The notes under the pieces were generated by a model, which searched no databases, was not told the DNA's origin, and saw only the letters and a list, made by a program, of their open reading frames with translations. A DNA stretch of 64,000 bases from Parcubacteria bacterium GBS-2. Its GTDB lineage: Bacteria > Patescibacteriota > Minisyncoccia > Minisyncoccales > GBS-2. Both the position numbers and the translations under genes were made by a program. Numbering within the stretch: position 1 is the first letter of the stretch; each line of letters begins with the position of its first letter. This document shows, one piece after another, positions 24,798 to 52,169 of this stretch. Location: assembly GCA_001443025.1 (NCBI GenBank), contig LEKP01000002.1, positions 28,429-92,428 of the forward strand, read 5' to 3'.

Positions 24798-25373
24798 ATG
24801 CGAAGAAGAATTTTCATTGCCATAAATTTACCAGAAAAAATTAAGGAAGAATTGGTGTCTTTTCGAGAAAAATATTCAGAATTGCCAGCTCGATGGGTAA
24901 AACCTGAAAATTTGCATATTACCTTAGCTTTTTTAGGATACGTGAAAGATGAGGATATTCCAAAAATTATTGAAATTACAAAAAATGTCGCCTCAAAACA
25001 TAATCCCTTTTCAATAAAAATTGTCAAAATCACTTATGGTCCGCCGAAAGTTTCTCCTCCCAGGATGATCTGGGCGATTGGGGAAAAAAATGAAAGCTTG
25101 TGGAAGTTACAAGAAAATTTGAAAAATGCTTTAATGGAAATGAAAATTCCTCAATTGGAAGAAGAAGAGGGAAGAGGATTTATTCCTCATATTACCTTAG
25201 CCAGAATTAGAAAATTGGAATTCAGACAAATGGAACCTGAAGAAAGGCCAGAAATTGATGAAGATGTAAATTTTTCTTTTGAAGTAAAAAGTATTGAAAT
25301 AATGGAAAGCCATCTAAAAAGAGGAGGAGCAGAATATACTCTATTAGAAAGTTTTCCTTTGGCAAAATCATGA
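24798..25373 (+). CDS. thpR: RNA 2',3'-cyclic phosphodiesterase (2H family, LigT/ThpR)
   Basis: Two H-x-T/S-x motifs: HITLAFLG and HITLARI; start placed at MRRRIFIAIN (the ORF-track N-extension is antisense to the radical SAM gene). Confidence 0.85.
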   Translation: MRRRIFIAINLPEKIKEELVSFREKYSELPARWVKPENLHITLAFLGYVKDEDIPKIIEITKNVASKHNPFSIKIVKITYGPPKVSPPRMIWAIGEKNESLWKLQENLKNALMEMKIPQLEEEEGRGFIPHITLARIRKLEFRQMEPEERPEIDEDVNFSFEVKSIEIMESHLKRGGAEYTLLESFPLAKS

Positions 25374-26680
25374 AAATTCATTTTATTGGTATTGGGGGAA
25401 TTGGTGTTTCGGCACTGGCTAGATATTATTTGACTCAAGGACATAAAGTTTCAGGTTCTGATTTAACCTCTTCTGAAATTACAAAGGCTCTTGAAAAATT
25501 AGGAGCCAAAATTTTTATTGGAAAGCATAGAGCGAAAAATCTATCAAAAGACGTTAATTTGGTAGTTTATAGCCCAGCGATTCTTGAATACAATCCTGAA
25601 TTAAAAAAAGCAAGAAAACTCAAAATTAAGTGCCAAAGTTACCCCCAAGCTCTTGGAGAATTAACAAAAACTCATTTTACCATTGCAGTTTGCGGATCCC
25701 ATGGAAAATCAACGGTTGCTGGAATGATTGGACTAATTTTAACTAAAGCAAAGTTTGATCCAACAGTAATCTTGGGAACAAAATTGAGAGAGTTTGGAGA
25801 TTCAAACTGTAGAGTAGGAAAGTCGGAATATTTAGTTATCGAAGCTGACGAATACAAAGAATCTTTTTTAAATTACTGGCCAAAAATCATCGTTTTACTA
25901 AACATTGATTATGATCACCCAGATTATTTTAAAAATTTAGACCATTACATTTTAGCTTACAAAAAATTTGTTTCTCATTTACCAAAAGATGGATTTTTAA
26001 TAGCAAACAGAGATGATAAAAATACTTTTTCAACTTTCAAAAAGAAAAAGGCAATTTGGTATTCATTAAAAGAAAAAGAGTGTAAAAAATTAAAAAAAAT
26101 TTTAAAAGTTCCAGGAGAGTTTAATGTCTCAAACGCAGTAGCTGCTTTAAAAGTTACTCGAATTTTAAAAATTCCAGATAAAATTTCTTTCAGAGCTCTC
26201 TCTCAATATAAAGGCTCTTGGCGCCGTTTTGATGAAAAAATTGTCCGTATACCAAATATGAAATACCCAATACGAATCATCAATGATTATGGCCACCATC
26301 CAACACAAGTCAAAGTCACTTTAGAGGCAGCCAGACAAAAATACAAAAACAAAAAGATCTGGTGTATTTTCCAACCCCATCAATATCAAAGAACTTATTA
26401 TCTTTTTGATGAGTTTGTAAAAGTTTTTAAGAGCCACTCAATCGATAAAGTAATTATCACTGACATTTATACAGTTTCTGGAAGAGAAAGCAAAGAAATA
26501 ATGAAAAAAGTGAATGCTCCAAAATTGGTAAAAGCAGTGAACAAAGAAAATGTGAAATATCTTCCAAAAGAAAAAATCATTCCTTATTTGAAGAAAAAAT
26601 TAAAGGGAGGCGAAATAGTAATAATAATGGGGGCAGGTGACATTTATAATTTGAGCTTGAAATTTAAAAATACTCAATAA
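25370..26680 (+). CDS. murC: UDP-N-acetylmuramate--L-alanine ligase
   Basis: MKIHFIGIGGIGVSALA Rossmann start, GSHGKSTV P-loop, Mur ligase middle/C domains. Confidence 0.9.
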   Translation: MKIHFIGIGGIGVSALARYYLTQGHKVSGSDLTSSEITKALEKLGAKIFIGKHRAKNLSKDVNLVVYSPAILEYNPELKKARKLKIKCQSYPQALGELTKTHFTIAVCGSHGKSTVAGMIGLILTKAKFDPTVILGTKLREFGDSNCRVGKSEYLVIEADEYKESFLNYWPKIIVLLNIDYDHPDYFKNLDHYILAYKKFVSHLPKDGFLIANRDDKNTFSTFKKKKAIWYSLKEKECKKLKKILKVPGEFNVSNAVAALKVTRILKIPDKISFRALSQYKGSWRRFDEKIVRIPNMKYPIRIINDYGHHPTQVKVTLEAARQKYKNKKIWCIFQPHQYQRTYYLFDEFVKVFKSHSIDKVIITDIYTVSGRESKEIMKKVNAPKLVKAVNKENVKYLPKEKIIPYLKKKLKGGEIVIIMGAGDIYNLSLKFKNTQ

Positions 26681-26866: not shown

Positions 26867-27481
26867 TTAGAACAATAAAATAATTTTTGATGATTTTGAG
26901 GGAAAAAAGGCAATTTTATCAAAAATAATCAAGCTTCCACTTAAACCTGGAATGTTTGTTTTCTTTACTTTTATTTGCCCCAATCTTTTTTTGATTGATT
27001 GGTAAATTTTTTTCCTCTCTCTTTGGCCAATAGGATTTAACTCTGGATTGACGATCAAAATTTCGGGGGTGGAGGAGAGAGAAAGAATTTCGATGAATGC
27101 CTTTTTTCCTTCTTTTCCTTGAAAAATTCTAATCCCTTCTTTTTCTCTCGAATACTTTGCTTCCAAAATCGAAACAATTCTGGTAAATTCTCTTTCCTTT
27201 TCTTCGATTTCTCTCTTTTTGATTCTTAAAAATCTCAAAATTTGGCTTGGGGATTGAGCGACAAAAAGTCTCTTTTTTCCTCTTTTCGTTTCAACAAATA
27301 ATCCCTTTTCTTCTAATTTTTTTACAATCTCATAAACAGTCGGTCTTGGAATTTTCACTTTTTCTGCAATATTTTTTATTGGACTTGGCCCTAATTCCAA
27401 ACCCGCCAAATAAACTTTGACCTCCTTTTCTTTCAAGCCCAATTTTTTCAATTCCAACTCAATTGGTAATTCAAGAACCAT
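26867..27481 (-). CDS. TrmB-family transcriptional regulator
   Basis: N-terminal wHTH: LGLKEKEVKVYLAGLELGPSPIKNIAEKVKIPRPTVYEIVKKLEEKGLF. Confidence 0.7.
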   Translation of the reverse strand: MVLELPIELELKKLGLKEKEVKVYLAGLELGPSPIKNIAEKVKIPRPTVYEIVKKLEEKGLFVETKRGKKRLFVAQSPSQILRFLRIKKREIEEKEREFTRIVSILEAKYSREKEGIRIFQGKEGKKAFIEILSLSSTPEILIVNPELNPIGQRERKKIYQSIKKRLGQIKVKKTNIPGLSGSLIIFDKIAFFPSKSSKIILLF

Positions 27482-27524
27482 ATTGCAATTTTATTTTAGT
27501 TTACTAAAAAACTAAGGTCAACAC

Positions 27525-27995: not shown

Positions 27996-28032
27996 AAAAT
28001 ATGTACCTTAAAAAAAAGGAGGTGATGGGAGA

Positions 28033-28797
28033 TTGAATTATGAAGAGCTGGTTAAAAGGAATTTTCCCCTAATCTCTAGAGAAACTCAAGAAAAGATAAG
28101 GAAGCTGAAAGTGGCAATTGTAGGAGTGGGAGCGTTGTCTTTTGTTCCCGCAATGTTAGCTAGATTAGGTGGAGAAAATTTCGTGCTAATTGATGGAGAT
28201 ATCATCGAAGCACACAACATGAATCACCAAATCTACACGGTACACCATATTGGAAAACCTAAAGTAGAAGCTCTGAAAGAAATAATTCTTTCTATCAACC
28301 CCCAAGCCAACGTCATAGCGTTGTCGAGTTTTGTAACACTTGAGAATTTGGAAGAGATATGGGAGAAGTATCTCTCTACAGCAAGGGTCATTGTTGACGG
28401 AATAGATCCGGTAACTCCTCTAGGGGGAATATTAATTTCATTGGAGTTAGCTCGGAAAGCGAAAGAAAATGAAATAGTGTTTCTATATCCGCTTGATATT
28501 GGGCATGGCGCTATTCTTTTGACTCAACTAGACGAACTTTCCTTAAAAGGAGAGGAGCCTCTGGAAATTCTCTTAAATCTAATGCAAAAGGCTCAGCAGT
28601 TCATTAACTTCCCCCAAGACTACGAAGAGATAATAATGAAAACTCTGAAGGAAGAAATTCATTACCCTCAAACAATACTATCTGCAATCAGTGCCTCCAT
28701 TTTAGTAACCACTTGTATACTTAACCTAGTTCAAGGGAAATCACTGCCCAAGCTCCTTTATCTCGATCTTGCCAATCTTTGCTTTATACACAAATAG
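28033..28797 (+). CDS. ThiF/MoeB/E1-like adenylyltransferase-fold protein
   Basis: KVAIVGVGALS Rossmann loop and DGDIIEAHNMNHQIY (E1 D.D.vE.SNLnRQ-like); TTG start after a strong SD; fewer Lys codons than neighbouring genes. Confidence 0.6.
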   Translation: MNYEELVKRNFPLISRETQEKIRKLKVAIVGVGALSFVPAMLARLGGENFVLIDGDIIEAHNMNHQIYTVHHIGKPKVEALKEIILSINPQANVIALSSFVTLENLEEIWEKYLSTARVIVDGIDPVTPLGGILISLELARKAKENEIVFLYPLDIGHGAILLTQLDELSLKGEEPLEILLNLMQKAQQFINFPQDYEEIIMKTLKEEIHYPQTILSAISASILVTTCILNLVQGKSLPKLLYLDLANLCFIHK

Positions 28798-28908
28798 TCA
28801 ATAATAAGGGATAGTACTACATTTTGTAGTCTATCCCTCTTTTTTAAAAACTTTAAAATGTTTGATAAAATATATTAATAAGGTCTATTTTCAAGGAATT
28901 TCGAAACC

Positions 28909-30444
28909 ATGGCAAAAATAGGAGAACTAATGCAAAAATTCATAATGTCGAACCCAGATAGGGCGTTAAAATTTTTTGCTTCAAGATCTGCAGAATGGTG
29001 GGAAAGGAGGGGAGAGAAGAAGGCTCTTCAAACGTTCCATGCAACTGCAGAGAGGGTCCCAGCTTATAAAGATTTTTTAAAAAAACATGGGATAACTGAT
29101 CATACAAAAATTCAAACGTTAGAAGACTTTAAGAAATATGTACCACTTCTTACTAAAGAAAATTACATTTTGGCTTATGATCTCAAAGAAAGATTAGCTG
29201 TTCCTTATGAGGATTTATTTACTATTTCTACTTCTTCTGGAACCATGGATAAACCTATTTATTGGCCGCGAACAGCATTTCAAGATAAAATGACTTCACG
29301 TTATTTTGAACTAATTTTTCGCGATGTTTATCAAATTCATAAACTTTCAACTTTAGCGATAGTGGCTTTTTCTTTAGGAAATTACATAGCCGGAGAATTG
29401 GTTAATTTTGTTGTGAAAGATATTGCCTTGCGCAATAAAAATAAGGTGAGTGTTGCTACGCCAGGTTCAGACCTTGAGGGAGTTTTACAAATCTTAACAG
29501 GCTTTCTAGATAAGTATGACCAGACCGTTATTTTCTGTTATCCTTCTTTGTTTAGAATTTTAATAGAAGAAGGAAAAAAGGTAGGAATAAATTGGAAAAA
29601 TTATAACGTCAAATGGTGTTATGGGGGGGAACCGTGTCCTCCAAAAATGAAAGCAAAAATTAAAGCGGAGGTTTTAGGAGAAAAAGAAGATTATACGTTT
29701 ATTCTCGCTGTTTATGGGGCGGCCGACGCAGGAGGAATTGGTTTTGGGAATCCATTCACTAATTTATTGGAGGAAATAATTCAAACAAATCCAAAAATCC
29801 AAGAAGGACTAAGAAAAAGAGGGATTGAATTAGAGGGCTCTTTAGTACAAGTAAACCCTTTGGCATATTTTATAGAAGAGGAAGATGACTATCTAATAAT
29901 TACAACCGGGGGAGCGGTTCCACTTGTAAGATATAATATCAAAGACCTGGGAGAAATTATTCTTTTTGAAGAAATGAATACTATTCTGAAAGAGGGTGGA
30001 ATAAATATTCAAGAACTTTTGAGAGAGAAATTGCACTCATATTATTTAATGAAACAACCTTTAGTTTTAATAAAGGGTAGGGAGGCTGCAGTTTCTTTAG
30101 ATGGAGCTAACGTTTTTCATTATCAAGTCAAAGAGATTATAGAAAAATCTCCTCACTTTAACAGTGTAAAAATTGGGAAAAAAGAGTTAGAGGGAGGAAA
30201 TGTAAAATTTGCAGTATATTTGGAATTGAAAAAAGATATTCAGCTTTCAAGTAATGAAATAGAAAAGTTGAAAAAAGAGTATCGTGATAAGATTCTTAAT
30301 CATCTGTTAGAAGTAAATTACGATTTCAGAAGATCTTATCAAGATAATCCTACTTTGTGCGATCCGGAAATTATTATTAGAAAATTTGGAGAAAAAGAAT
30401 TTGCTCCTACTAAATCTGGTAAATTTAAGCCAATAGTTATATAA
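28909..30444 (+). CDS. adenylate-forming enzyme (PaaK / coenzyme F390 synthetase / GH3-like)
   Basis: N-terminus RVPAYKDFLKKHGI..IQTLEDFKKYVPLLTKENY resembles PaaK; AMP-motif TSSGTMDKPIYWP; VRYNIKDLGEI hinge. Confidence 0.6.
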   Translation: MAKIGELMQKFIMSNPDRALKFFASRSAEWWERRGEKKALQTFHATAERVPAYKDFLKKHGITDHTKIQTLEDFKKYVPLLTKENYILAYDLKERLAVPYEDLFTISTSSGTMDKPIYWPRTAFQDKMTSRYFELIFRDVYQIHKLSTLAIVAFSLGNYIAGELVNFVVKDIALRNKNKVSVATPGSDLEGVLQILTGFLDKYDQTVIFCYPSLFRILIEEGKKVGINWKNYNVKWCYGGEPCPPKMKAKIKAEVLGEKEDYTFILAVYGAADAGGIGFGNPFTNLLEEIIQTNPKIQEGLRKRGIELEGSLVQVNPLAYFIEEEDDYLIITTGGAVPLVRYNIKDLGEIILFEEMNTILKEGGINIQELLREKLHSYYLMKQPLVLIKGREAAVSLDGANVFHYQVKEIIEKSPHFNSVKIGKKELEGGNVKFAVYLELKKDIQLSSNEIEKLKKEYRDKILNHLLEVNYDFRRSYQDNPTLCDPEIIIRKFGEKEFAPTKSGKFKPIVI

Positions 30445-33631: not shown

Positions 33632-34948
33632 ATGCGCGTATTAAATATAGAAACAAAAGGGTATCTTGGTAAAAAAATAAAAGTTGCAGGATGGGTCAAT
33701 TCAAGAAGAGATCACGGAAAAATTGTTTTTTTGGATTTAAGAGATAAAAGTGGGGTTTTGCAAGTAGTTGCACACTCAAAAATAGCAGAAGGAATAAAAG
33801 AAGAAGATGTTTTGGAAGTGGAGGGGGAAGTAAAAGAAAGACCAAAAGAAATGATAAATCCGAAATTGGAGACTGGAAATGTGGAATTGAAAGCAGAAAA
33901 AATTAAAATTTTAGTAAAATCTCAAAAATTACCATTTGATATCAAAAGTTTAAAACTTTCTTTACCAAAACTTTTGGATTTTAGACCCTTAACTTTACGG
34001 AACGAAAAGCAAAGGGCAATTTTTAGGGTCCAAAGAGAAATTATTGATAGTTTTAGAAAAACAATGAAAAATCTTGGATTTTTTGAATTTGAAGCTCCAA
34101 CCATCGTAGCATCGGCAACTGAAGGAGGAGCTGAGGTTTTCCATGTTGACTATTTTGATAAAGATGCTTATTTGGCTCAATCTCCTCAGTTATACAAGCA
34201 AATTTTGGTTTCGGTTTTTGAAAGAGTTTTCACGGTTTGCAAAGCTTTCAGGGCAGAACCTTCAATTACTACTCGTCACTTAACAGAGTATATTTCTTTG
34301 GATTGCGAAATGGGATTTATTGAATCTTGGGAAGATTTAATGGAAACTTGTGAAATTGTGGTCAAAAATATTTTTTCTGATGTTGAAAGAAATTGTAAAA
34401 AAGAGCTTGAAATGTGGGGAGCAAAAATTCCAGAGATAAAAGGGAAAATACCAAGGCTAAAACTTAGGGAAGCTCAAGAAATAATTTTAAAAAGAACGGG
34501 GAAAGATAAAAGAGAAAACCCTGATCTAGATCCAGAAGATGAAAGAGAAATTTGCAACTATGCAAAAGAGAAATTCAATTGTGAATTAGTTTTTATTACT
34601 CATTTCCCAACCTCAAAGAGACCATTTTATACTTTTGAAGACCCAGAGAACTCAGAATATACTTTGAGCTTTGATCTTTTGTTCAGAGGTTTAGAAATTG
34701 TAACGGGGGGGCAAAGGATTAACGATTACAAATATTTAGTCAAAAAAATGAAAAGGTTCAAACTTGACCCAAAAAATTTTAAATATTACCTTCAGGCTTT
34801 CAAATACGGAATGCCCCCTGAAGGAGGTTTTGCAATTGGCGCGGAAAGAATAACAAAACAGATTCTAGGCTTAGAAAACATCAGAGAAGCTTCTTTATTC
34901 CCGAGAGATTTACAAAGAGTCGATATTAGATTAAAAAAGAAAAAATGA
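33632..34948 (+). CDS. aspS: aspartyl-tRNA synthetase, short archaeal/eukaryal type
   Basis: N-terminal OB fold, class II motif 2 FRAEPS, motif 3 GGFAIGAERI; 438 aa with no bacterial GAD insertion. Confidence 0.9.
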   Translation: MRVLNIETKGYLGKKIKVAGWVNSRRDHGKIVFLDLRDKSGVLQVVAHSKIAEGIKEEDVLEVEGEVKERPKEMINPKLETGNVELKAEKIKILVKSQKLPFDIKSLKLSLPKLLDFRPLTLRNEKQRAIFRVQREIIDSFRKTMKNLGFFEFEAPTIVASATEGGAEVFHVDYFDKDAYLAQSPQLYKQILVSVFERVFTVCKAFRAEPSITTRHLTEYISLDCEMGFIESWEDLMETCEIVVKNIFSDVERNCKKELEMWGAKIPEIKGKIPRLKLREAQEIILKRTGKDKRENPDLDPEDEREICNYAKEKFNCELVFITHFPTSKRPFYTFEDPENSEYTLSFDLLFRGLEIVTGGQRINDYKYLVKKMKRFKLDPKNFKYYLQAFKYGMPPEGGFAIGAERITKQILGLENIREASLFPRDLQRVDIRLKKKK

Positions 34949-35859
34949 GAAAAAATTTGTTTATATTTTGTTTTGGAATTTTCCTTGGTGGATTTTTAAC
35001 TTATTTCTTAAATTTTTCACAAACGAAACTAGAAAATTTTTTTACTGCTCAAATTACAAAACCACTAGAAGAAATAAATTTTGTAAAAATTGAAAGACAA
35101 AAAAAATCTCTACCAGATTTAGAAGTCAAAGCAGTGATCTCTTTGAGATTGAACCCAAAAAAGAAAATATCAGAGAAGGTTTTGTATTCAAAAAATGAAG
35201 ATGAAATTTTGCCAATTGCCTCTTTAACAAAATTAATGACTGCTTTAGTTGTAATTGAAGACCCAGAAAATTATCCTCTTAATAAAGAGGTTAAAATTTC
35301 AAGAGAGGCAGCTTTTCAAATTGATGTCCCGGAATATGGAAATCTGAAACCTGGAGAAAGAAAAACAATTTATGATCTTTTAAATTTCATGCTCTTTTTC
35401 TCGAGCAACGACGCAGCGTTTGCATTAGCAGAACAAATCGATGTTAAAAATTTCGTAAATAGAATGAATCAGAAGGCAAAAGAAATTGGTTTGGAAAATA
35501 CTTATTTTTCAAATCCTACGGGTTTGGATCCCGAAAATTTAAAATGGAGTTTGGAAAATAAAGACCATTTTAATTATTCAACTGCCAGAGATTTGGTTTT
35601 GCTTGGGAAGTATATTCTCAAAAATTATCCTCTAATATTTGAATTCTCTAATCTGAAAAATAAAATTCAGCTTTTGGAAAATCAATATCTAATCGGAATG
35701 AAAACTGGCTATACTAATGAAGCTGGCGGTTGTATTTTTTTAGTTTTTTCAAATGACAAGGGTGATTATTTCTTAAACGTAATCTTAGGTGCGAAATCGA
35801 GAGAAGAAAGGTTTTTGCAAATGCAAAAATTGGTAGATTGGATTAATGGAAAAATTTGA
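34945..35859 (+). CDS. D-alanyl-D-alanine carboxypeptidase (S11, low-MW PBP)
   Basis: SLTK (SxxK), SSND (SxN) and KTGYT (KTG) triad; N-terminal TM. Confidence 0.85.
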   Translation: MRKNLFIFCFGIFLGGFLTYFLNFSQTKLENFFTAQITKPLEEINFVKIERQKKSLPDLEVKAVISLRLNPKKKISEKVLYSKNEDEILPIASLTKLMTALVVIEDPENYPLNKEVKISREAAFQIDVPEYGNLKPGERKTIYDLLNFMLFFSSNDAAFALAEQIDVKNFVNRMNQKAKEIGLENTYFSNPTGLDPENLKWSLENKDHFNYSTARDLVLLGKYILKNYPLIFEFSNLKNKIQLLENQYLIGMKTGYTNEAGGCIFLVFSNDKGDYFLNVILGAKSREERFLQMQKLVDWINGKI

Positions 35860-36931
35860 TTTTGCTTTTGCGGTTGTTAAAGTTTTGTTTTTTTCTGGAG
35901 TAACTGCTACTCTTTCTTTAGCTTTTGCTCCAATTTTAATTAAGTTTTTAAACAAAATTAAGTTCTGGAAAAAGAAGGCTAGAGAAAGTGCAATCTCAGG
36001 AGAAAAAGCAGAGATTTTTTATTCATTGCATAAAGAAAGGGAGGTTTCTGTACCAAGGGGCGGAGGACTATTAATCTGGAGTTCATTGGTTTTTGTTATT
36101 TTTTTGACTTTTATTTTAGCAAAAATTACTGGAATTTGGTGGCTAGAGAAATTGAATTTTCTATCAAGAAAGGAAACTTGGCTTCCTCTATTTGCATTAG
36201 TTTCAGCATCGATTATTGGATTGATTGATGATATACTAGTTGTCTTTGGAAAAGGAAAATATCTTGGTGGAGGAATGAGTTTTTGGAGAAGGTTTTTAAT
36301 TATTTCTTTAATTGGATTAATCGGTGGTTGGTGGTTTTATTATAAATTAGGATGGAACCAGGTCCATATTCCTTTATTGTTTAATTTTCCAGCTGGTATT
36401 GATATCAATATCGGTCCTTGGATAATTCTTCTTTTTGTAATTGTTACTTTAGCTTGCTGGGCAGGGGGAATAGTTGATGGTTTGGATGGTTTAGCTGGTG
36501 GAGTTTTTGCTTCAATTTTTGGTGCCTTTTCAATTTTGGCATTTTCTCAGGGAAAAATAGATTTAGCAACTTTTTGTGGATCGATCGTTGGCGCTCTTTT
36601 TGCATTTTTATGGTATAACATTCCACCAGCAAGGTTTTACATGGGAGAAACCGGTGTGATGGGATTGACTGTCACCATAGCTGTAGTTTCTTTTTTGACA
36701 GATTCAGTTTTGGTTTTACCAATCATCGGTGGGATTTTGGTAATAGAAGTTGGCTCTGTAATTTTACAGCTTTTATCGAAAAAAATTAGAAAAAAGAAAA
36801 TTTGGTTGTCCACTCCAATTCATCACCATTTGGAAGCTAAAGGTTGGCCTCCATATCAAATAGTGATGAGATTTTGGGTTTTATCTTTTGTTTTTGCAAT
36901 TTTGGGAGTGGCAATTAGGCTTTTAAGATGA
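35846..36931 (+). CDS. mraY: phospho-N-acetylmuramoyl-pentapeptide transferase
   Basis: 10-TM protein with the GIVDGLDGLAGG motif and C-terminal HHHLE. Confidence 0.88.
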   Translation: MEKFDFAFAVVKVLFFSGVTATLSLAFAPILIKFLNKIKFWKKKARESAISGEKAEIFYSLHKEREVSVPRGGGLLIWSSLVFVIFLTFILAKITGIWWLEKLNFLSRKETWLPLFALVSASIIGLIDDILVVFGKGKYLGGGMSFWRRFLIISLIGLIGGWWFYYKLGWNQVHIPLLFNFPAGIDINIGPWIILLFVIVTLACWAGGIVDGLDGLAGGVFASIFGAFSILAFSQGKIDLATFCGSIVGALFAFLWYNIPPARFYMGETGVMGLTVTIAVVSFLTDSVLVLPIIGGILVIEVGSVILQLLSKKIRKKKIWLSTPIHHHLEAKGWPPYQIVMRFWVLSFVFAILGVAIRLLR

Positions 36932-38205
36932 TCGCAAAAACTTTAAGAAAAAAATATCCAAAATTTGTTTTTAATTCATTTGATTTCAAATTGAAAAAGA
37001 AGGGGCTTGAGATTTTTTTTAATTTTAAAATAGAACCTAATATTCGATTTTCCCCAAAAGTTTTGATTGAAGGGATTAGAGAAAGAGAAATTAAAAGAGT
37101 AGGAGAGAGAGCGTTGAAAAATTTAATATTCAATCTAGGAATAATTGAAATTTTGAGTTATTGGAAAGCAACTTGCTCTCCAAAGATTGAAATTTTAGCA
37201 GGGGCTTTAAACAAAGAACAAATTAAATGGTGGAAAGAGCTGATTTTGAAAGGAATGGGACAATTCTTCTTTGAAAACAAAATCAATTTTTTAGAAAAAA
37301 ATTTCTTAAAAATTGAAGGCTTTGGAGAAAAATTTGAAAGATTTGAAGGAAGATTGAATGAAAACAGAATTTTGGTTCCAGTAGGTGGGGGGAAAGATTC
37401 TGTAGTGACTATTGAATATTTAAAGAAAATGAAAAAAGATTTGATTTTGTTTTGTTTGAACCCAAACAAAAACCAAAAGAAAATAATTAAAATTTCTGGA
37501 GTCAAAAAAAGAATTTTTGTTAAAAGAGAGATAGACAAAAAACTTTTGATGCTAAATCAAAGAGGATTTTTAAATGGTCATACTCCATTTACTGCTTATT
37601 TGTGTTTTTTATCGGTTTTAGTTGCTGTTTTGAAAAATTGTAAGTTTATTGCTTTTTCAAATGAAAAAAGTTCAAACGAAGGTAACCTGAAATATCTTGG
37701 AAGAATCATTAACCATCAATACTCAAAGAGTGAAGATTTTGAAAAAAAGTTCAGATTTTATTCAAAAAAATATTTAGCAAAAAACGTAGAATGCTTTTCT
37801 TTATTAAGAAATCTTTATGAACTTGAAATTTCAGCTTTATTTTCCCAATTTCCTCAATATTTCAACGCTTTCTTGAGTTGCAATGTCGCTTTCCAAACAA
37901 AATCTGGAACAAAAAAACCGATTAAGAAGTGGTGCGGTGAGTGTCCAAAGTGTCTTTTTGTTTTTACTTCTCTTTATCCTTTTATCGGGGAAAAAGTAAT
38001 GAAAATTTTTGGGAAAAACCTTTTTGAAGATAAAAATTTACTTCCTTTAATGTTCCAGTTAATAGGGAAGAAAAAATTCAAACCATTTGAATGCGTTGGG
38101 ACAAAAAAAGAAAGTTTTTTAGCTTTTAAACTTTCGCTTGAAAGATGGAAGAGAGAAAATCAAAAATTGCCTTTTTTGCTCAAAAAATTTTCCTCTTTGC
38201 TATAA
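36928..38205 (+). CDS. PP-loop (SGGKDS) ATP-pyrophosphatase-superfamily protein with CxxC motif, function unknown
   Basis: ILVPVGGGKDSVV P-loop of the adenine-nucleotide alpha-hydrolase fold about 140 aa from the N-terminus; WCGECPKC near the C-terminus; sits between mraY and murD. Confidence 0.55.
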   Translation: MIAKTLRKKYPKFVFNSFDFKLKKKGLEIFFNFKIEPNIRFSPKVLIEGIREREIKRVGERALKNLIFNLGIIEILSYWKATCSPKIEILAGALNKEQIKWWKELILKGMGQFFFENKINFLEKNFLKIEGFGEKFERFEGRLNENRILVPVGGGKDSVVTIEYLKKMKKDLILFCLNPNKNQKKIIKISGVKKRIFVKREIDKKLLMLNQRGFLNGHTPFTAYLCFLSVLVAVLKNCKFIAFSNEKSSNEGNLKYLGRIINHQYSKSEDFEKKFRFYSKKYLAKNVECFSLLRNLYELEISALFSQFPQYFNAFLSCNVAFQTKSGTKKPIKKWCGECPKCLFVFTSLYPFIGEKVMKIFGKNLFEDKNLLPLMFQLIGKKKFKPFECVGTKKESFLAFKLSLERWKRENQKLPFLLKKFSSLL

Positions 38206-38211
38206 TCTAAT

Positions 38212-39558
38212 ATGAAATTGGAAGAATTAAAAAATAAAAAAATTTTAATTTTGGGGCTTGGAAAGGAAGGAAAAGATACTTTTGAATTTTTGAGTAAAAT
38301 TTTTCCAGGAAAAATCATTGGAATTGCTGATCAGAATCCAAATTGCAAATTGCAGGCTACAGACCGAAAACTCAAGAGAGTTAAATGGTATTTAGGAAAA
38401 AGTTATTTGAAGGCATTAAAAAATTATGATGTTATTATCAAATCGCCAGGAGTTCCGATTCATCTGCCAGAAGTTGAAAGAGCTTATAAAGAAGAGAAAA
38501 TTACTTCTCAAACTGAAATTTTTCTTCAAAATTGCAAATGTAAAGTTGTTGGAATAACAGGAACCAAAGGAAAAAGCACCACTGCGAGTTTAATATACAA
38601 GGTTTTGAAGGAAGGAGGGTTAAAAGTCCATCTAGTAGGTAACATAGGGAAACCGGTTCTAAATTATCTAATCTCTCAAAGAGAGGATGAAATTTTCGTT
38701 TATGAGCTGTCCTCTCACCAACTTTATAATTTAAAAATCTCTCCTCATGTCGCTGTTTTTCTAAACATTTATCCTGAGCACTTGGATTATTACAAAGATT
38801 TTAAGGAATATTTAATGGCAAAGGCAAATATTACTCTTTGGCAAAGAAAAAACGATTTTTTGATTTATAATTTCAAAGATAAAAACGTAAGGGAAATTGC
38901 AAAAAAAACAAAAGCAAAAAAAATCCCAATAAAAGATTATTCCAAAATGCTCAAGGATATTGGAATAAAGAAAATTCCTTTTTATGGGGAATTTTATGGA
39001 TTAAACATTGCTTGTGCAATTGAGGTTGGAAAAATTTTTGGAGTCAAAAAAGAAAAAATTAAAAGAGCAATTGAAAAATTTAACCCCTTGCCTCATAGAT
39101 TAGAGTATGTTGGAAAATTCAAGGGAATTGAATTTTTCAACGATTCTCTTTCAACAATTCCTCAAACTACCATTTTTGCCCTTAAAACTCTTGGTGAAAG
39201 GGTTCAAACTTTAATTTTAGGAGGATATGATAGGGGATTGAATTTTAAAGAATTGGTAAAAGAAGTTTTAAAAATGAAAGTTAAAAATTTGATTTTGTTC
39301 CCCGAAACTGGGGAAAAAATTTGGCGAGAGATTTTGAATCAAGTGAAGAACGGTTCTGAACTACCAAAGGCAATCTTAGTTCAAAACATGAAAGATGCTG
39401 TAAAAACCGCTTTTAAAATTACAGAAAAAAGAAGAATATGTCTTTTGTCTCCTGCGTCACCTTCTTTTGGAATTTTCAAAGATTATAAGGAAAGGGGGGA
39501 TTTATTTAAAAAGTATGTAAAATATTATGGGAAAAAATCTTGTGGGGAAAAATCCTGA
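38212..39558 (+). CDS. murD: UDP-N-acetylmuramoylalanine--D-glutamate ligase
   Basis: ILILGLGKEG N-terminus, GITGTKGKSTT P-loop; position in the cluster. Confidence 0.88.
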   Translation: MKLEELKNKKILILGLGKEGKDTFEFLSKIFPGKIIGIADQNPNCKLQATDRKLKRVKWYLGKSYLKALKNYDVIIKSPGVPIHLPEVERAYKEEKITSQTEIFLQNCKCKVVGITGTKGKSTTASLIYKVLKEGGLKVHLVGNIGKPVLNYLISQREDEIFVYELSSHQLYNLKISPHVAVFLNIYPEHLDYYKDFKEYLMAKANITLWQRKNDFLIYNFKDKNVREIAKKTKAKKIPIKDYSKMLKDIGIKKIPFYGEFYGLNIACAIEVGKIFGVKKEKIKRAIEKFNPLPHRLEYVGKFKGIEFFNDSLSTIPQTTIFALKTLGERVQTLILGGYDRGLNFKELVKEVLKMKVKNLILFPETGEKIWREILNQVKNGSELPKAILVQNMKDAVKTAFKITEKRRICLLSPASPSFGIFKDYKERGDLFKKYVKYYGKKSCGEKS

Positions 39559-40630
39559 CCTTTTCCTTTTAAGTATTTTTCTCTTTATTTTGATAGGGAA
39601 TTTTCTAATTTTAGCTAGTGTCTCTGCGCCAATTTCTCAAGAAAAATACGGTGAAAGTTTTTATTATTTTCGCCATCAGATAATTTATGGGTTAATTCCT
39701 GGCGTAATTTTACTTTTGTTTTTTTATAAAATTGATTTAAATTTATTAAAAAAATACTCTCCAATTTTTCTCTTAATTACCTTGGTTTTTACCGCATTGG
39801 TATTTATCCCAGGAATCGGAATAACAATTAGGGGTGGAACAAGATGGATAGGTTTTGGTCCTTTTTCATTCCAGCCATCTGAATTTTTAAAGCTGGCTTT
39901 CATTGTTTATTTAGCAGCTTGGCTTGAAACGCGGACCAAAAAGAAAACTAAAAATTTTAACCAAACTCTTGTTGCTTTTTTAATTATTCTCTCTTTAATA
40001 GGAATTTTTCTTCTTGCTCAGCCTGACGTTTCTACATTTGGAATAATTTTTGCAACTGCTTTAGTAATGTTTTTTTTGGCAAAAACTCCAATGTGGCAAA
40101 CTTTTTCAATCTTGGTTTTGGCAATTTTGCTCCTCATCCCTTTAATAAAAACTTCTACATATCGAATGCATAGAATTTTAACATTTTTAAATCCAGACCT
40201 TGACCCTTTAGGCATAGGTTATCAAATAAAACAGGTTTTAATCGCTATTGGTTCTGGAAAATTATTTGGTTTGGGTTTTGGTCTTTCACAACAGAAATTT
40301 GGATTTTTACCTCAATCTTTTTCAGATGCAATTTTTGCAGTATTCGCTGAAGAATCTGGTTTTTTGGGATGCTTGTTTTTAATTATCTTGTATTTGATGT
40401 TTTTTTGGAAATCATTTAAGATTGGAAAAGAAAGACAGAACGAGTTTGAACGACTTTTGGTTTTTGGAATTTCGTTCTGGATTTGTTTTCAAACTTTTCT
40501 TAATATTGGAGCAATGACAAGAATTTTACCACTTACCGGAATTCCATTTCCTTTTTTGAGTTATGGGGGATCTCATCTGATTTCTGAGATGGCGGCGGTC
40601 GGTATTTTATTAAAAATTTCAAAATCATGA
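39527..40630 (+). CDS. ftsW: SEDS-family peptidoglycan glycosyltransferase
   Basis: 10 TM; GIPFPFLSYGGS C-terminal motif. Confidence 0.88.
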   Translation: MGKNLVGKNPDLFLLSIFLFILIGNFLILASVSAPISQEKYGESFYYFRHQIIYGLIPGVILLLFFYKIDLNLLKKYSPIFLLITLVFTALVFIPGIGITIRGGTRWIGFGPFSFQPSEFLKLAFIVYLAAWLETRTKKKTKNFNQTLVAFLIILSLIGIFLLAQPDVSTFGIIFATALVMFFLAKTPMWQTFSILVLAILLLIPLIKTSTYRMHRILTFLNPDLDPLGIGYQIKQVLIAIGSGKLFGLGFGLSQQKFGFLPQSFSDAIFAVFAEESGFLGCLFLIILYLMFFWKSFKIGKERQNEFERLLVFGISFWICFQTFLNIGAMTRILPLTGIPFPFLSYGGSHLISEMAAVGILLKISKS

Positions 40631-41745
40631 AAATAGTATTCACTGGAGGAGGAACAGGTGGGCATATTTTTCCAATTATTGCAATAATTAGAGAGCTCAA
40701 AAAAATTGCAGGTGAAAAATTTGAAATTTTTTATATTGGCCCAAAAGACGAAATTGCCCAAATTTATCTTTCATACGAAAATATCAAAATTAAATGGATA
40801 ATTTGTGGAAAGTTTAGGAGATATTTAAATTTTCAAAGTTTTTTTCAAAACATAGTTGATTTGTTTAAAATATCAATTGGAGTAGCTCAGGCTTTTTTCC
40901 ATCTTTTTCTGATTAATCCCGATTTAATTTTTTCAAAAGGGGGGTATGGGTCTTTTCCCGCGGTAATTGCAGGGTGGATTTTGAGAATTCCAATTTTCCT
41001 TCACGAGTCTGATGTAGTTCCAGGCTTGGCAAACAGAATTTTAGCAAGGTTTGCCTTGGAAATTTTTGTTTCATTTCCAAAAACTCTTTATTTTCCTCTA
41101 GACAGAGTTATAGTTGTCGGAAACCCAATAAGGACTGAGTTATTAAATGGAAATAGAGAAGAAGGAAAACAGTATTTTAAAATCACAGGAGAAAAACCGG
41201 TAATTTTAATCTTAGGAGGTTCTCAAGGAGCTCAAAGAATAAATGAAAAAATTTTAACAATTTTAAACAACCTTTTAGAAAATTTCGAATTAATTCATCA
41301 AACTGGGGTAAAAAATTTCAAACAAGTAGAGGCCGAGGCTAACGCAATCATAGAAGAAGAGTTAAAAAAATATTATCACCCTGTTCCATTTTTAAAAGAA
41401 GAGGAATTGAAGAAAGCCTATGCTGTATGTGATCTGGTAGTTGCCAGATCGGGATCTGGAACGATTTTTGAAATTGCTGCATTAGCCAAACCTTCAATTT
41501 TAATTCCTCTTCCTGAATCAGCTCAAGATCATCAAGTAAAAAATGCCTATTCTTATTTTGAGCATAAAGCAACTATTGTGATTGAAGAAAAGAATTTCAC
41601 TCCAGGTTTTTTCCTTGAAAGGCTCAAAGCTCTTTTTGAGAACAAAGAAGAATTGGAAACCATGATAAAAGCAGCTAAAGATTTTGCGCGGCCTTTAGCG
41701 GCAAAAGTAATTGCTTATTATATTTTTGAATTTTTAAAAAGATAG
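40627..41745 (+). CDS. murG: UDP-GlcNAc:undecaprenyl-PP-MurNAc-pentapeptide GlcNAc transferase
   Basis: FTGGGTGGHIFP N-terminal motif and GT-B C-domain. Confidence 0.9.
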   Translation: MKIVFTGGGTGGHIFPIIAIIRELKKIAGEKFEIFYIGPKDEIAQIYLSYENIKIKWIICGKFRRYLNFQSFFQNIVDLFKISIGVAQAFFHLFLINPDLIFSKGGYGSFPAVIAGWILRIPIFLHESDVVPGLANRILARFALEIFVSFPKTLYFPLDRVIVVGNPIRTELLNGNREEGKQYFKITGEKPVILILGGSQGAQRINEKILTILNNLLENFELIHQTGVKNFKQVEAEANAIIEEELKKYYHPVPFLKEEELKKAYAVCDLVVARSGSGTIFEIAALAKPSILIPLPESAQDHQVKNAYSYFEHKATIVIEEKNFTPGFFLERLKALFENKEELETMIKAAKDFARPLAAKVIAYYIFEFLKR

Positions 41746-49146: not shown

Positions 49147-50166
49147 TTACGTCTCTTTTTTTCTAACCTGAAGTTTTTTTCTAATTAAGAACGCAGTTAC
49201 AATTACGCTAACTATGATTAAAATTAAAACAATTGAAATTTGAATGATTTTCTTGGGGTGTAATTCTTTCTTGGGTCGAACTGTTTCTTTTTCTTTTATT
49301 TTTTCTGGATAGAAAGTAGCAATTGTTTCGTTTCCTGCTCTATCCACTGCTTTGACTTTTATTTCTTCATCCAAATTCTGATTTTCTAACAAATAAGGAC
49401 TTTTTGCTATTTTCCATTCTCTTTCTCCTTCTTTTACCATGTAATAATCAACTCCGGTTTCTTTATCAGTGGTATAAAAAACTATAAAATATTTTCCATC
49501 AAAAATGGCAGGATCTCTCTGAATTTGAATTTCAAAAGGTTCTGGGGGGGTAGTATCATTTAACAATTTTTCTCGCCACTCATTTAACCCTTTGCCAGAG
49601 GTGGGTAAAATTTTGATTTTTGAATCTTGAAGAGTAAGTCTTGCTAAAGTTCCTCTACCATCATTTAGAAAAACTTGAGAAGTGTTTAAAATTTTAATTT
49701 CTGCAATTTTTTCTTCAACTTCTCCTACTATCATTGAAGGTATAAAAAACCTAATTTCACCAATCACATTTGTCATCCCCGGATCTCCTGGAATTCTTCC
49801 ACAATAACCACCTGGAATTCCTCCAGAAAAAGAAATTTTTCCAGTTTCATTGATTTTTTTAGTATCTAAACTTGATGGTCTTTCAACCCAGATTGTAACG
49901 ATTGAATCTCCAAAATCTGCTCCTTCAAAGATTAAGGTATCATTTGGAAAACTTAAATCAACTGAAATTGTGTTAATACATTCTCCTTCCGGATCAATCC
50001 TGATTTTAATACCAAAATGATCCTTAAGACCGTATTCACCTTCTTTGGGATCTAAATATAAAACAGCACCAAAAATAAATGATGGTAAAACTGAAAACAA
50101 CAAACAAAAAGCCAAAATTTTTAATTTAAGGTGTGGAATTTGGAATTTGGAATTTGGAATTTTCAT
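49147..50166 (-). CDS. surface protein with N-terminal signal and C-terminal TM anchor; 5' heptanucleotide SSR
   Basis: Signal peptide, C-terminal IIQISIVLILIIVSVIVTAFLIRKK anchor; (AATTCCA)x4 in codons 2-10. Confidence 0.5.
   Translation of the reverse strand: MKIPNSKFQIPHLKLKILAFCLLFSVLPSFIFGAVLYLDPKEGEYGLKDHFGIKIRIDPEGECINTISVDLSFPNDTLIFEGADFGDSIVTIWVERPSSLDTKKINETGKISFSGGIPGGYCGRIPGDPGMTNVIGEIRFFIPSMIVGEVEEKIAEIKILNTSQVFLNDGRGTLARLTLQDSKIKILPTSGKGLNEWREKLLNDTTPPEPFEIQIQRDPAIFDGKYFIVFYTTDKETGVDYYMVKEGEREWKIAKSPYLLENQNLDEEIKVKAVDRAGNETIATFYPEKIKEKETVRPKKELHPKKIIQISIVLILIIVSVIVTAFLIRKKLQVRKKET
50134..50161. repeat. heptanucleotide SSR (TGGAATT)x4, minus-strand (AATTCCA)x4
   Basis: Perfect 4-unit tandem repeat directly after the start codon of the 49147-50166 gene. 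Confidence 0.85.
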
Positions 50167-50167
50167 T

Positions 50168-51208
50168 TTATCCTGTCCAATAATACATCATTATACTAAA
50201 ATCGACTAAATTCACTATTCCATCTTGGTTTTGGTCTGCACAAGGATTGTTAGTCCCCCAATAGTAAAGTAAAATTGAAAAGTCGATTAAATTTACTTTC
50301 CCATCTTGGTTTAAATCAGCACCAGGACAAATTCCAACTGGTGGCTTTTTCCCAACATAGAAAGTAACAAATCTGCTAAAACTGCTTACCACCGTTGCTC
50401 CTTCTATTATTGTTTTGAATTGGGATTTGGCTGTGTGCATTGATTCATCTTCTAAAGGAGAAGTATCAAAGAAAAGGTCCCATTCTCCTTTTTCTGTAGA
50501 AGTGGTTTCTTGGATTATTTCAGCTGGCGAGGCAATGTAAACTGGAACTTTAGCTTCTGGAATAGTTTGACCGAATATTTTTAGTATTTCCCCTCTTTTT
50601 ACAACATTTTTATCTACCCCAATAGTGGGTGGTAAATATGCTCCTCTAACAGTCGTCACAGCATTTGGCATTACTTCAAAGGTTAAAGTATATAAAATTG
50701 ATCTCAGTCCAAATTTATCATCTGCCCAAAAACTTAAGGTATTAATCCCTGGAGTAATATCTGTTGTTTGCCAGGAAAAATTTGCTTTTGAATCGGTTCT
50801 TACTCTGGCGATTTCCTTTCCATCTTTTAAAATTCTCACTTCAGTATCGGGATAGGCTTTCCCCAAAACAATTAAGGTAGTGGGTCCCAAAGGTCTCATT
50901 GCTCCTCCAGGATATCCCCCACCCCCTGCCCCCATTCCTCCAGGTTCTACATAACAGTGCTCAATGGAAATTCTAGTGCAATTATCAACACAGAGTAAAT
51001 ATCCTCGATTATATCCGTAAGTTGCGCAAGTTTTGCCCCCGAAATTGTCTCCGTCGCAAACTTCAAAACCATCGATTCTTCCATCACCACAAACTGAAAT
51101 TCCAACTATGGTAGGAACTTGTTTTTGAGCAAAGACTTTTAGAGAAAAAATTAAAAGAAAGGTTAAAATTAGAAAGAAAATTTTCAAAAATTCCTTCCAT
51201 AATTTCAT
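50168..51208 (-). CDS. secreted protein with Cys-rich repeat and C-terminal dockerin-like module
   Basis: CGDGRIDGFEVCDGDNFGGKTC (Myxococcus-type C-G-D-G...E.CD.GN repeat); C-terminal DLNQDGKVNLIDFSILLYYW and DQNQDGIVNLVDFSIMMYYW (two dockerin Ca-binding repeats). Confidence 0.6.
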   Translation of the reverse strand: MKLWKEFLKIFFLILTFLLIFSLKVFAQKQVPTIVGISVCGDGRIDGFEVCDGDNFGGKTCATYGYNRGYLLCVDNCTRISIEHCYVEPGGMGAGGGGYPGGAMRPLGPTTLIVLGKAYPDTEVRILKDGKEIARVRTDSKANFSWQTTDITPGINTLSFWADDKFGLRSILYTLTFEVMPNAVTTVRGAYLPPTIGVDKNVVKRGEILKIFGQTIPEAKVPVYIASPAEIIQETTSTEKGEWDLFFDTSPLEDESMHTAKSQFKTIIEGATVVSSFSRFVTFYVGKKPPVGICPGADLNQDGKVNLIDFSILLYYWGTNNPCADQNQDGIVNLVDFSIMMYYWTG

Positions 51209-51212
51209 AAAA

Positions 51213-52169
51213 TTATTTTTTTCCTCGTTTAAAAAAGATTCTTTTGAGTGCTTTGAAAGAAACTAAAAAGATTCCAAAAACCAAAGCGATTGCCAGAATT
51301 GAAATTAAAACTTTTTCTCTCCCCAAGATTAGAGATTCAAAAAAACTAAATCCTTTATACCCAGGAATGCTTCCTCTTTCTTTAATGTTGACCACTAATT
51401 CTCCCTCTTTAACTATTTCTTTTTCTTTGTAAATTTTATATTTTACCCAATAATTTCCCTTTGGGAGTTTTGTTTTGAAAATTGCAAAAACATTATCTGT
51501 TTTGAAAGGTAAAACTTTTCCTTCAATTTTTACACTATCTAAAGATTCCAAAATTTTTGATTTTAATATGTCGTAAATATCCAAATGAACTTTAGACGGA
51601 GTTACTGGCAAATTTCCCACATTTTCAATTGTCATTTTCATTACCAATTTTCCAGGAATGAAAAAGAAAAACCATTTGTAGCCTTCTTCTAAATCTAAAA
51701 ATTCAACTGCCCTAACGATAAAGCTAAAAATTTTTCTTTCAGTAACGTTCAAATCAACTTCAACTCTAGCTCCAAGAGCAATTCCAACTTGACCTGGTTG
51801 TATTTCTTTTGGTTCAACTGTAATTCGCATAAAACCAGTGTACCTTCCATACGGTGCATCGTTTGGAACTTGCACACTAACTATTATCGGAACTGCTTTT
51901 TCTCCTTTTGGCAAAATAAAAGAGGTTCCCTTGTCGATTTTTATCCAATTGTCTGCGCCTGGAACGTTAATTGTAATTGTAACTTTTGAATCCTCAACCG
52001 GATCTCCTCTTACTAAATATATTTTTTCCTCAAAATAGGAACCTCTTGTTAGATTTTCGTTACGCAAAAATGGAGGGGAAATTCCAAAACCAGCAAAAGC
52101 TGTTTGGTAAAAAAACAATAAAAATAATATTAATAACCCAATTTTTCCCCAATTTTCTTGGGAAGTCAT
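51213..52169 (-). CDS. surface protein with signal peptide and C-terminal TM anchor
   Basis: N-terminal signal, beta-rich body, C-terminal ISILAIALVFGIFLVSF + KR tail. Confidence 0.45.
   Translation of the reverse strand: MTSQENWGKIGLLILFLLFFYQTAFAGFGISPPFLRNENLTRGSYFEEKIYLVRGDPVEDSKVTITINVPGADNWIKIDKGTSFILPKGEKAVPIIVSVQVPNDAPYGRYTGFMRITVEPKEIQPGQVGIALGARVEVDLNVTERKIFSFIVRAVEFLDLEEGYKWFFFFIPGKLVMKMTIENVGNLPVTPSKVHLDIYDILKSKILESLDSVKIEGKVLPFKTDNVFAIFKTKLPKGNYWVKYKIYKEKEIVKEGELVVNIKERGSIPGYKGFSFFESLILGREKVLISILAIALVFGIFLVSFKALKRIFFKRGKK

Follow-up and report, generated by a model that had tools for sequence, protein, structure and literature searches.

A predicted MurL–MurD2 pair for D-glutamate incorporation in the cell-wall gene block of a Parcubacteria bacterium

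Introduction

Xanthomonas oryzae has neither a glutamate racemase nor a D-amino-acid aminotransferase, and its epimerase MurL (XOO_1319; Feng et al. 2017, as reviewed in PMC8788868 and PMC5808125) carries out an ATP-dependent epimerization of a terminal glutamate (Glu), in the L-to-D direction only and with the formation of AMP. Its authors have hypothesized that the α-carboxylate is adenylated, have described the protein as being without “known conserved domains”, and list its distribution as some Gammaproteobacteria, some Alphaproteobacteria, and rare actinomycetes (PMC8788868, PMC5808125); both reviews come from the laboratory that discovered MurL. Here, we analyze a stretch of 64,000 nucleotides from Parcubacteria bacterium GBS-2 (contig LEKP01000002.1, positions 28,429 to 92,428 of the forward strand; hereafter the window), in which a gene that we assign to the MurL family lies between mraY and the gene of a ligase resembling MurD2, the L-Glu-adding ligase that precedes MurL in the Xanthomonas pathway. 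Our reading is that this pair very probably installs D-Glu at position 2 of the stem peptide without the use of free D-Glu.

The residues that set MurD2 apart from canonical MurD have been mapped in the X. oryzae enzyme, where D182, K348, A414, and L416 of Escherichia coli MurD correspond to E197, R358, P433, and F435 (PMC8788868). The double mutation E197D/R358K turns MurD2 into a D-Glu ligase, and the K319T mutation makes E. coli MurD accept L-Glu (PMC8788868). In the literature, L-Glu ligation and an ATP-dependent, unidirectional epimerization with release of AMP have been described for enzymes from Xanthomonas, Micromonospora, and Salinispora. Our literature search found no paper linking MurL with Patescibacteria, and searching for “glutamate epimerase” turned up only unrelated epimerases of the enolase superfamily.

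Results

A MurL-family gene downstream of mraY

The first-pass annotation of the window, made from the sequence alone, had singled out an open reading frame (ORF) at 36928–38205 on the plus strand, coding for an “unknown” protein of 425 amino acids (aa) placed between mraY and murD in a tight cell-wall block. Our ORF listing recovers this frame exactly, and Pfam and NCBIfam models identify its neighbors as the cell-wall genes proposed. The block, together with the more distant murC, reads as follows.

34945 to 35859, plus strand: gene for an S11 D-Ala-D-Ala carboxypeptidase, which opens the conserved block (PF00768, E = 2e-42)
35846 to 36931, plus strand: mraY (PF00953 and TIGR00445)
36928 to 38205, plus strand: ORF of the murL family, 425 aa, ATG start (ORF listing)
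38212 to 39558, plus strand: gene for a MurD-family ligase, of MurD2 type by its signature residues (Mur ligase domains; TIGR01087, 321 bits)
39527 to 40630, plus strand: ftsW (TIGR02614, 355 bits)
40627 to 41745, plus strand: murG (TIGR01133, 261 bits)
25298 to 26680 (limits of the stop-to-stop frame), plus strand: murC (TIGR01082, 407.9 bits against a cutoff of 335)

The stop codon of mraY and the start codon of murL share an ATGA, visible at the junction (...ttaagATGAtcgc...), which gives the 4-nt overlap that had been noted at first pass. A spacer of 6 nt separates the murL stop from the ATG of the ligase gene, and the remaining junctions of the block overlap by 14, 32, and 4 nt according to the ORF coordinates; given these overlaps and the short spacer, the tight packing of the block is real. 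The start codon of murL is backed by an N-terminal alignment with 25 homologs, and the exact sequence recurs on three metagenome contigs with a gene order identical to that of the window. Judged from its sequence and that of its relatives, the ORF is a genuine, strongly conserved gene and not a chance reading frame.

The protein had been called unknown, with an N-terminal domain of about 140 aa for which no match could be named. By its profile matches, it belongs to the described MurL family (PMC8788868, PMC5808125), and Pfam has both PF26299 (MurL_N), which gives the N-terminal domain its name, and PF26298 (MurL_epimerase_C) on record for the exact protein (E ≤ 1e-5). Our own scan of the murL protein with an older copy of Pfam-A returned no family, but that copy predates PF26298 and PF26299, and since both are on record for the same protein the empty scan is an artifact of the age of the library; a “no hit” from this copy can be a false negative for any recently added family. 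The sole NCBIfam match is NF041275 (“MurL_Xanthmoales”, UDP-N-acetyl-alpha-D-muramoyl-L-alanyl-L-glutamate epimerase), with E = 1.3e-75 and 254.6 bits, aligning aa 59–405 with profile positions 53–395 of 447.

For a direct comparison, we used Xanthomonas sacchari, found by a tblastn search of a plasmid collection, in which the Prokaryotic Genome Annotation Pipeline (PGAP) annotates murL followed by “murD”. BLASTP aligns the window protein with X. sacchari MurL at 32% identity over 326 aa (E = 3e-55), and the two have in common the motifs GGGKDS, NGH(T/I)P, FSNE(K/H)S, NHQ(Y/W)SK, SCN, WCGxCPKCxFVF, and KPFECVG. At E ≤ 1e-5, the protein has more than 7,900 matches in the database, and all 120 relatives among the matches listed carry both PF26298 and PF26299. 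These relatives go by the name of “hypothetical protein” at NCBI and in some cases of QueC at the Joint Genome Institute (JGI), and several of them come from entries titled “Patescibacteria group bacterium”. The label “unknown” is a matter of lagging annotation, and not of missing knowledge.

An adjacent ligase of the MurD2 type

The gene immediately downstream had been taken for a plain murD, and here the picture changes, as it carries the signature of the L-Glu ligase type. We checked the sequence of E. coli MurD against Protein Data Bank (PDB) chains and then aligned it to the window ligase, which has E189, R341, P417, and F419 at the positions of E. coli D182, K348, A414, and L416, and L313 at the position of K319. 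At the same columns (182/319/348/414/416), X. sacchari MurD2 reads E/I/R/P/F, with a spacing that fits the X. oryzae numbering as published. In five canonical MurDs of solved structure (E. coli, Pseudomonas aeruginosa, the 7sir chain, Streptococcus agalactiae, and Thermotoga maritima), position 182 is Asp or Thr and position 319 is Lys. The window ligase has all four MurD2 residues and a residue other than Lys at 319, and we therefore classify the product of 38212–39558 as a MurD2-type ligase, predicted to add L-Glu.

Pairing and fusion across phyla

To place the locus among its relatives, the family alignment was scanned against one genome per GTDB species, which yielded at least 600 stretches, of which at least 596, from as many species-level genomes, encode a relative. 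From these, we retained the best 80 loci with flanks of 10 kb (loci are cited below by number and positions). In the synteny comparison that the first-pass annotation had proposed, the arrangement recurs. The order dac-mraY-murL-murD-ftsW-murG is found in about 35 of these 80 loci, from Paceibacter, Nealsonbacteria, “Paceibacterota”, and Parcubacteria, all from the Candidate Phyla Radiation (CPR), and the cultured Minisyncoccus archaeiphilus, with its complete genome (NZ_AP038758.1), is among them; CP179889.1, OY969803.1, and CP011210.1 are further complete genomes with this block. Only the murL-murD pair is kept in Microgenomates, Bacteroidales, Lentimicrobiaceae, Acidobacteria, Rokubacteria, Binatia, and Proteobacteria, and in all, 67 of the 80 loci, from many phyla, have a murD-family gene on the same strand downstream of murL. 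The ligases so placed can be aligned at the diagnostic positions in 65 of the 67 cases. Of these 65, 62 have Glu at E. coli position 182 and 63 have Phe or Tyr at position 416; position 348 is Arg in every one, and position 319 is Lys in none.

At four further loci (L036:5938-8259, L061:5911-8697, L066:410-3211, and L077:5956-8622), MurL and MurD are encoded in one ORF. When the representatives of 50%-identity clusters were searched exhaustively, 2,560 clusters matched at a threshold of E ≤ 1e-3 and 1,144 at one of E ≤ 1e-30, and 36 of the best 150 representatives are fusions, 34 in the order MurL-MurD and two in the order MurD-MurL. These fusions, of about 770–1,070 aa, occur in Microgenomates, Marinilabiliales, Lentimicrobiaceae, and Lachnospirales, and most of their ligase halves have the MurD2 signature. 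In some CPR loci, the two genes are split by an insertion (L004:8553-9494, L005:7984-9135, L037:935-1870, and L029:7375-8640), and the products of the inserted genes are a transposase of the IS1595 family, an HMG-CoA reductase, a GTPase of the Obg/TGS type, and a pilin-like protein whose N terminus has a methylation motif. A conserved third partner between murL and murD was considered and rejected, the inserted genes being unrelated, and for the same reason we regard the murL-murD pair as the functional unit. The placement in the cell-wall cluster thus appears functional rather than incidental, as had been suggested at first pass, given that murL pairs and fuses with MurD2-type ligases.

This neighborhood also bears on the specific role first proposed for the protein, that of an AsnB-like or MurT/GatD-like PP-loop amidotransferase amidating a carboxylate of lipid II or of the UDP-MurNAc-peptide. 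A PP-loop is indeed present, amidation likewise begins with the adenylation of a carboxylate, and the gene sits in a cell-wall cluster. Across phyla, however, the sole conserved neighbor is a MurD2-type ligase, with no conserved glutaminase gene beside it; the scan with the older Pfam copy, in which a search for Asn_synthase had been recommended, gives no Asn_synthase, GATase, or other match; and the characterized members of the family produce AMP and an isobaric epimer, not an amide. The chemistry of the family is an ATP-dependent L-to-D epimerization, and we regard amidation as very unlikely.

Some members of the family are found in other settings. MurL homologs are present on mobilizable actinomycete plasmids, namely L085:3911-5311 (pPaSha1 of Pseudonocardia alni), NZ_CP010991.1, and NZ_CP011869.1; they score 323 bits on NF041275, are annotated as hypothetical, have no murD as neighbor, and are flanked by genes for WD40 and helix–turn–helix proteins. 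The role of these plasmid homologs may be different from that of chromosomal MurL. With regard to record titles (L003, L012, L015, L016, L018, L031, L035, and L039), many records of binchicken metagenome-assembled genomes with the Paceibacteria-type dac-mraY-murL-murD order are titled “uncultured Candidatus Saccharibacteria”, and “Enterobacteriaceae” or “Pseudomonadales” stands in the titles of some murL loci; such titles seem untrustworthy and were not used for taxonomy.

Predicted fold and invariant residues

Structure prediction, another of the checks suggested at first pass, gave a confident AlphaFold2 model with a PP-loop core (26-sequence alignment; predicted local distance difference test score, pLDDT, 92.1; predicted template modeling score, pTM, 0.92). 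The best Foldseek matches of this model in the PDB are QueC (E = 1.7e-5), QatC, TtuA, Cap9, and argininosuccinate synthase, and on these matches we assign the C-terminal domain to the QueC-type PP-loop ATP pyrophosphatases. The QueC-, Cap9-, and TtuA-like cores found agree with the earlier description of the protein as a PP-loop enzyme of the AMP-forming type. The overlap with QueC-type cores covers about 165–170 of the 425 residues, with a TM-score of 0.33 when normalized by the query. A sequence search of the PDB, with both the protein and the family profile, found nothing beyond a PP-loop segment of TtuA, and no MurL structure appears to have been solved so far. The domains and predicted sites are listed below.

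36928 to 37335, plus strand: N-terminal domain MurL_N, about aa 1–136, boundary approximate (AlphaFold2 secondary structure and the two Pfam families)
37345 to 38202, plus strand: C-terminal PP-loop ATP-pyrophosphatase-like domain MurL_epimerase_C, about aa 140–425, boundary approximate
37384 to 37401, plus strand: PP-loop G153-G-G-K-D-S158, predicted site for the α/β-phosphates of ATP (conservation and alignments)
37879 to 37953, plus strand: Cys cluster C318...C336-x2-C339-x2-C342, predicted QueC-type Cys4 metal (Zn) site
38092 to 38094, plus strand: C389, a fifth invariant Cys in the motif KPFECVG (100% conserved; motif also in Xanthomonas MurL)

The P-loop motif reported at first pass, RILVPVGGGKDSVV, is present at aa 147–160, as is WCGECPKC at aa 335–342, while the loop that had been named SGGKDS reads GGGKDS. 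It aligns to SGGKDS of TtuA and SGGQDS of QueC, and is also GGGKDS in Xanthomonas MurL. Across 148 diverse family members, 42 positions are conserved at 95% or more, among them the PP-loop residues G154–S158 (at least 97%), N216-G-H218-x-P220, E246, S248, N262-H-Q264, K267, E272, R294, and K80; K385, P386, and E395 reach at least 97%, and C318, C336, C339, C342, and C389 are all conserved at 100%. Conserved residues of the N-terminal domain in the same set are F41, G71, E74, Y78, W79, K80, G109, and N117, and a fold search of the PDB matched no solved structure to this domain of about 136 residues. The stretch C336-GEC-PKC342 is nearly identical to C195-GEC-PAC201 of QueC, which has C186 upstream. 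In QueC, we take C186, C195, C198, and C201 to be Zn ligands, and as the Cys pattern of MurL matches these, we infer that MurL, too, has a structural metal site of the Cys4 kind. The fifth invariant cysteine, C389, is MurL-specific and a candidate catalytic residue or additional metal ligand.

The likeness to QueC raises the question of whether the protein could be a tRNA-type enzyme of the QueC/TtuA/TilS kind, or a QatC/Cap9-like defense protein, with an incidental position in the cluster. Its best structural matches include QueC, Cap9, and QatC, the CGECPxC motif is common with QueC, and several close homologs are named 7-cyano-7-deazaguanine synthase by JGI. Yet the structural likeness is limited to the core described above, HHalign to QueC covers only 52 columns around the PP-loop, and no QueC, TtuA, or TilS model is matched (NCBIfam at E ≤ 10, Pfam at E ≤ 1). 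The synteny and the fusions are with MurD2, and not with queuosine or defense genes. The first-pass annotation had itself raised a full-length match to a tRNA-modification enzyme as the finding that would make the cell-wall placement incidental, and what is found is a likeness confined to a core of about 165 residues. We consider this possibility extremely unlikely and effectively already refuted. As individual candidates, TtuA, TilS, and ThiI were rejected, there being no full-length match to any of these tRNA-modifying enzymes, and the defense proteins QatC and Cap9 were rejected on zero PADLOC matches at E ≤ 1 and on the cell-wall gene context.

Other genes in the window

The window has a GC content of about 31% throughout, with one tRNA gene and no rRNA gene. 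An ORF at 590–1612 (+, 340 aa) carries a TFIIB repeat (PF00382, E = 2.8e-13) and matches an NCBIfam “transcription initiation factor IIB” subfamily at E = 1.2e-12, far under its cutoff; this domain type is archaeal/eukaryotic, and the window is otherwise clearly bacterial (elongation factor P, ribosomal protein L9, DnaX, and Mur genes). Genes more typical of archaea are also present in this CPR-like bacterial window, namely those for a family-B DNA polymerase at 18891–21338 (−; PF00136, E = 1e-72), a TrmB-type regulator at 26867–27490 (−), and a myo-inositol-1-phosphate synthase at 13754–14860 (+).

A ThiF/E1-like adenylyltransferase gene at 28012–28797 (+) lies directly upstream of an ORF at 28882–30444 (+) whose 511-aa product has no Pfam match and a weak similarity to PaaK (phenylacetate-CoA ligase; E = 3e-12, far under the cutoff), followed by genes for a histidine kinase and a response regulator. 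The ThiF-like protein and the 511-aa protein may form an uncharacterized adenylation pair. Finally, a run of large ORFs on the minus strand (49147–53959, 58720–60075, and 60005–63511) includes ORFs of 346, 320, 586, and 451 aa with no Pfam or NCBIfam match, beside a protein that contains a dockerin, one of 506 aa that combines fibronectin type III and purple-acid-phosphatase N-terminal domains, and one of 1,168 aa that has a glycine-rich domain. The large ORFs and their neighbors probably code for CPR surface proteins.

Discussion

A member of the MurL family next to a matching ligase of the L-Glu type makes a Xanthomonas-type wall route probable in this bacterium. In such a route, MurC would make UDP-MurNAc-L-Ala, the substrate of MurD2, and MurD2 would add L-Glu. 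MurL would then bind ATP-Mg at the PP-loop G153–S158 and adenylate the α-carboxylate of the terminal L-Glu with release of pyrophosphate, after which the activated Cα proton would be taken off and returned from the opposite face, converting L-Glu to D-Glu; the activated C-terminal residue may pass through an intermediate of the oxazolone type. The consumption of ATP would make the reaction one-directional, and MurE, MurF, MraY, and MurG would then act as usual. That adenylation takes place at the PP-loop we infer from the fold, and this loop gives a structural footing to the hypothesized adenylation as well as to the ATP-to-AMP stoichiometry; H218, H263, K267, E246, E272, C389, and K80 are candidates for the acid/base residues. 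The genes murC, mraY, ftsW, and murG all lie within the window. The first-pass annotation had proposed an enzyme modifying the stem peptide or lipid II, and on the pathway outlined here the stem-peptide part most likely stands, while lipid II does not.

Several observations weigh against this interpretation. The window protein reaches 254.6 bits on NF041275, and does not reach the equivalog cutoff of 700 bits; its identity to the nearest equivalog-grade MurL, that of X. sacchari (assigned by model score), is only 32%. On the ordinary murD model TIGR01087, the window ligase scores 321 bits and passes the cutoff of 212, and among the 65 alignable ligases next to murL, three have Asp at position 182. 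MurL homologs at L031, L038, L041, and L072 and on the Pseudonocardia plasmids have no murD within 6 kb, so the family may not be functionally uniform. None of the MurL and MurD2 enzymes assayed comes from CPR. Saccharimonas, also of the CPR, reportedly has an active MurI. Our search for MurI (Asp_Glu_race) and class-IV aminotransferases, by Pfam on 40 further ORFs and by a motif scan, found none within the 64-kb window, and it is to the window, not to the genome, that this result applies.

Two of these points can be qualified. Nine homologs from outside Xanthomonadales (Minisyncoccus, Vitreimonas, Actinomycetota, Rokubacteria, Bacteroidales, Beckwith-, Roizman-, Paceibacter, and Pseudonocardia) score 219–323 bits on NF041275, and X. 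sacchari MurL, at 836.5 bits, is the only one of the homologs scored to pass. By these scores, the cutoff is tuned to Xanthomonadales, and a score under it, typical of members from elsewhere, excludes a “Xanthomonadales equivalog” and not membership of the family. As for TIGR01087, PGAP also names the MurD2 of X. sacchari (L084:6136-7572) “UDP-N-acetylmuramoyl-L-alanine--D-glutamate ligase”; since this enzyme is so named and the window ligase passes, the model is evidently blind to stereospecificity.

The only rival with real weight is that the MurL-family protein has diverged in CPR and acts on another C-terminal carboxylate, be it in a different stem-peptide intermediate, a recycled muropeptide, or some other peptide, with the ligase using D-Glu from a racemase or from a host. 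The low identity, the sub-cutoff score, the family members that stand apart from murD, the limit of the murI search to the window, and a MurI with racemase activity that is said to have been reported in Saccharibacteria would all fit. Against it, every motif that is invariant across the family is kept, the partner ligase has the full MurD2 signature, including the two residues that set L-Glu specificity by mutagenesis, and MurL is, as a rule and in phylum after phylum, paired or fused with a MurD2-type ligase. On balance, we consider such a divergence improbable, and a MurL–MurD2 route to D-Glu remains our preferred explanation of the pair.

What was flagged as a function-suggestive unknown of the window thereby becomes a specific assignment, an L-Glu ligase and epimerase pair that would provide D-Glu without glutamate racemase. 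On a wider scale, it seems rather likely that MurD2/MurL is the standard route to D-Glu in large parts of Patescibacteria, many Bacteroidales, Acidobacteria, and others, and that MurL is a QueC-like adenylating enzyme with a Cys4 site and a fifth Cys. Patescibacteria are meant here in a broad reading, covering Paceibacteria/Nealsonbacteria-like lineages and Microgenomates, Minisyncoccus archaeiphilus included. If this is true, such organisms need no free D-Glu, and the pair is hard-wired between mraY and ftsW in Paceibacteria-like genomes; thousands of “MurD, D-glutamate ligase” annotations give the wrong stereochemistry; and an epimerase so far without a mechanism gains a concrete structural framework. 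In metabolic reconstructions of reduced CPR genomes, a missing murI would no longer be a gap or a sign of host dependence. The proposal of MurD2/MurL as a narrow-spectrum antibiotic target would also have to be reconsidered, since it would reach more organisms than has been assumed.

The MurL family is far more widespread than the reviews state (PMC8788868, PMC5808125), with at least 596 species-level genomes, some 1,100–1,950 clusters at 50% identity, and frequent MurL–MurD fusions, and public annotation lags behind, with CPR MurLs labeled “hypothetical” or “QueC” and MurD2s named as D-Glu ligases. The PP-loop fold of the QueC type lends support to the proposed adenylation and points to residues as targets for mutagenesis. 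What our study adds is the wider distribution of the pathway, its integration into the division and cell wall (dcw) operon of Paceibacteria-like CPR, and the assignment of a QueC-like fold.

How does this pair compare with known systems? MurI and D-amino-acid aminotransferase would lead to the same end result as MurL, namely D-Glu at stem position 2, by unrelated folds and chemistry; they supply D-Glu from free Glu before ligation and reversibly, the racemase without a cofactor, whereas MurL comes into play once ligation is done, at the cost of ATP and in one direction only. AsnB-type enzymes have a PP-loop domain. Like MurL, MurT/GatD and AsnB-type enzymes are ATP-dependent, and they modify a carboxylate of the stem-peptide Glu or diaminopimelic acid; unlike MurL, they make an amide and need a glutaminase domain or subunit, and MurT has a Mur-ligase fold, none of which is seen in the window protein. 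QueC is a single domain of about 220 aa, to which the window protein adds its N-terminal domain (about 140 aa) and a helical C-terminal region of greater length; the chemistry of QueC and its Cap9- and QatC-like relatives is amide or nitrile formation, that of MurL epimerization and hydrolysis, and their genomic contexts differ.

The closest system is that of Xanthomonas. MurL of X. oryzae (XOO_1319) has the same two-domain architecture and the same Pfam families as the window protein, and its published ATP-to-AMP requirement fits the PP-loop of the latter. XOO_1319 lies directly upstream of MurD2 (XOO_1320), as do the corresponding genes in X. sacchari and in the window. The window ligase has in common with Xanthomonas MurD2 the diagnostic Glu, Arg, Pro, and Phe, a residue other than Lys at E. 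coli position 319, and murL as its neighbor. The differences lie in sequence, in setting, and in host. The window ligase is only 24% identical to X. sacchari MurD2, and the window protein, at 425 aa against 451 aa for Xanthomonas MurL, is shorter by about 25 aa. By its best protein and locus matches, the host of the window is a low-GC (about 31%), Paceibacteria-like member of the CPR, a group absent from the published distribution of MurL. Finally, the Xanthomonas pair lies outside the division and cell-wall cluster, beside lysC/lysA-like and unrelated genes, whereas that of the window sits between mraY and ftsW, translationally coupled to mraY, with the ligase gene in the ordinary murD slot of the dcw cluster.

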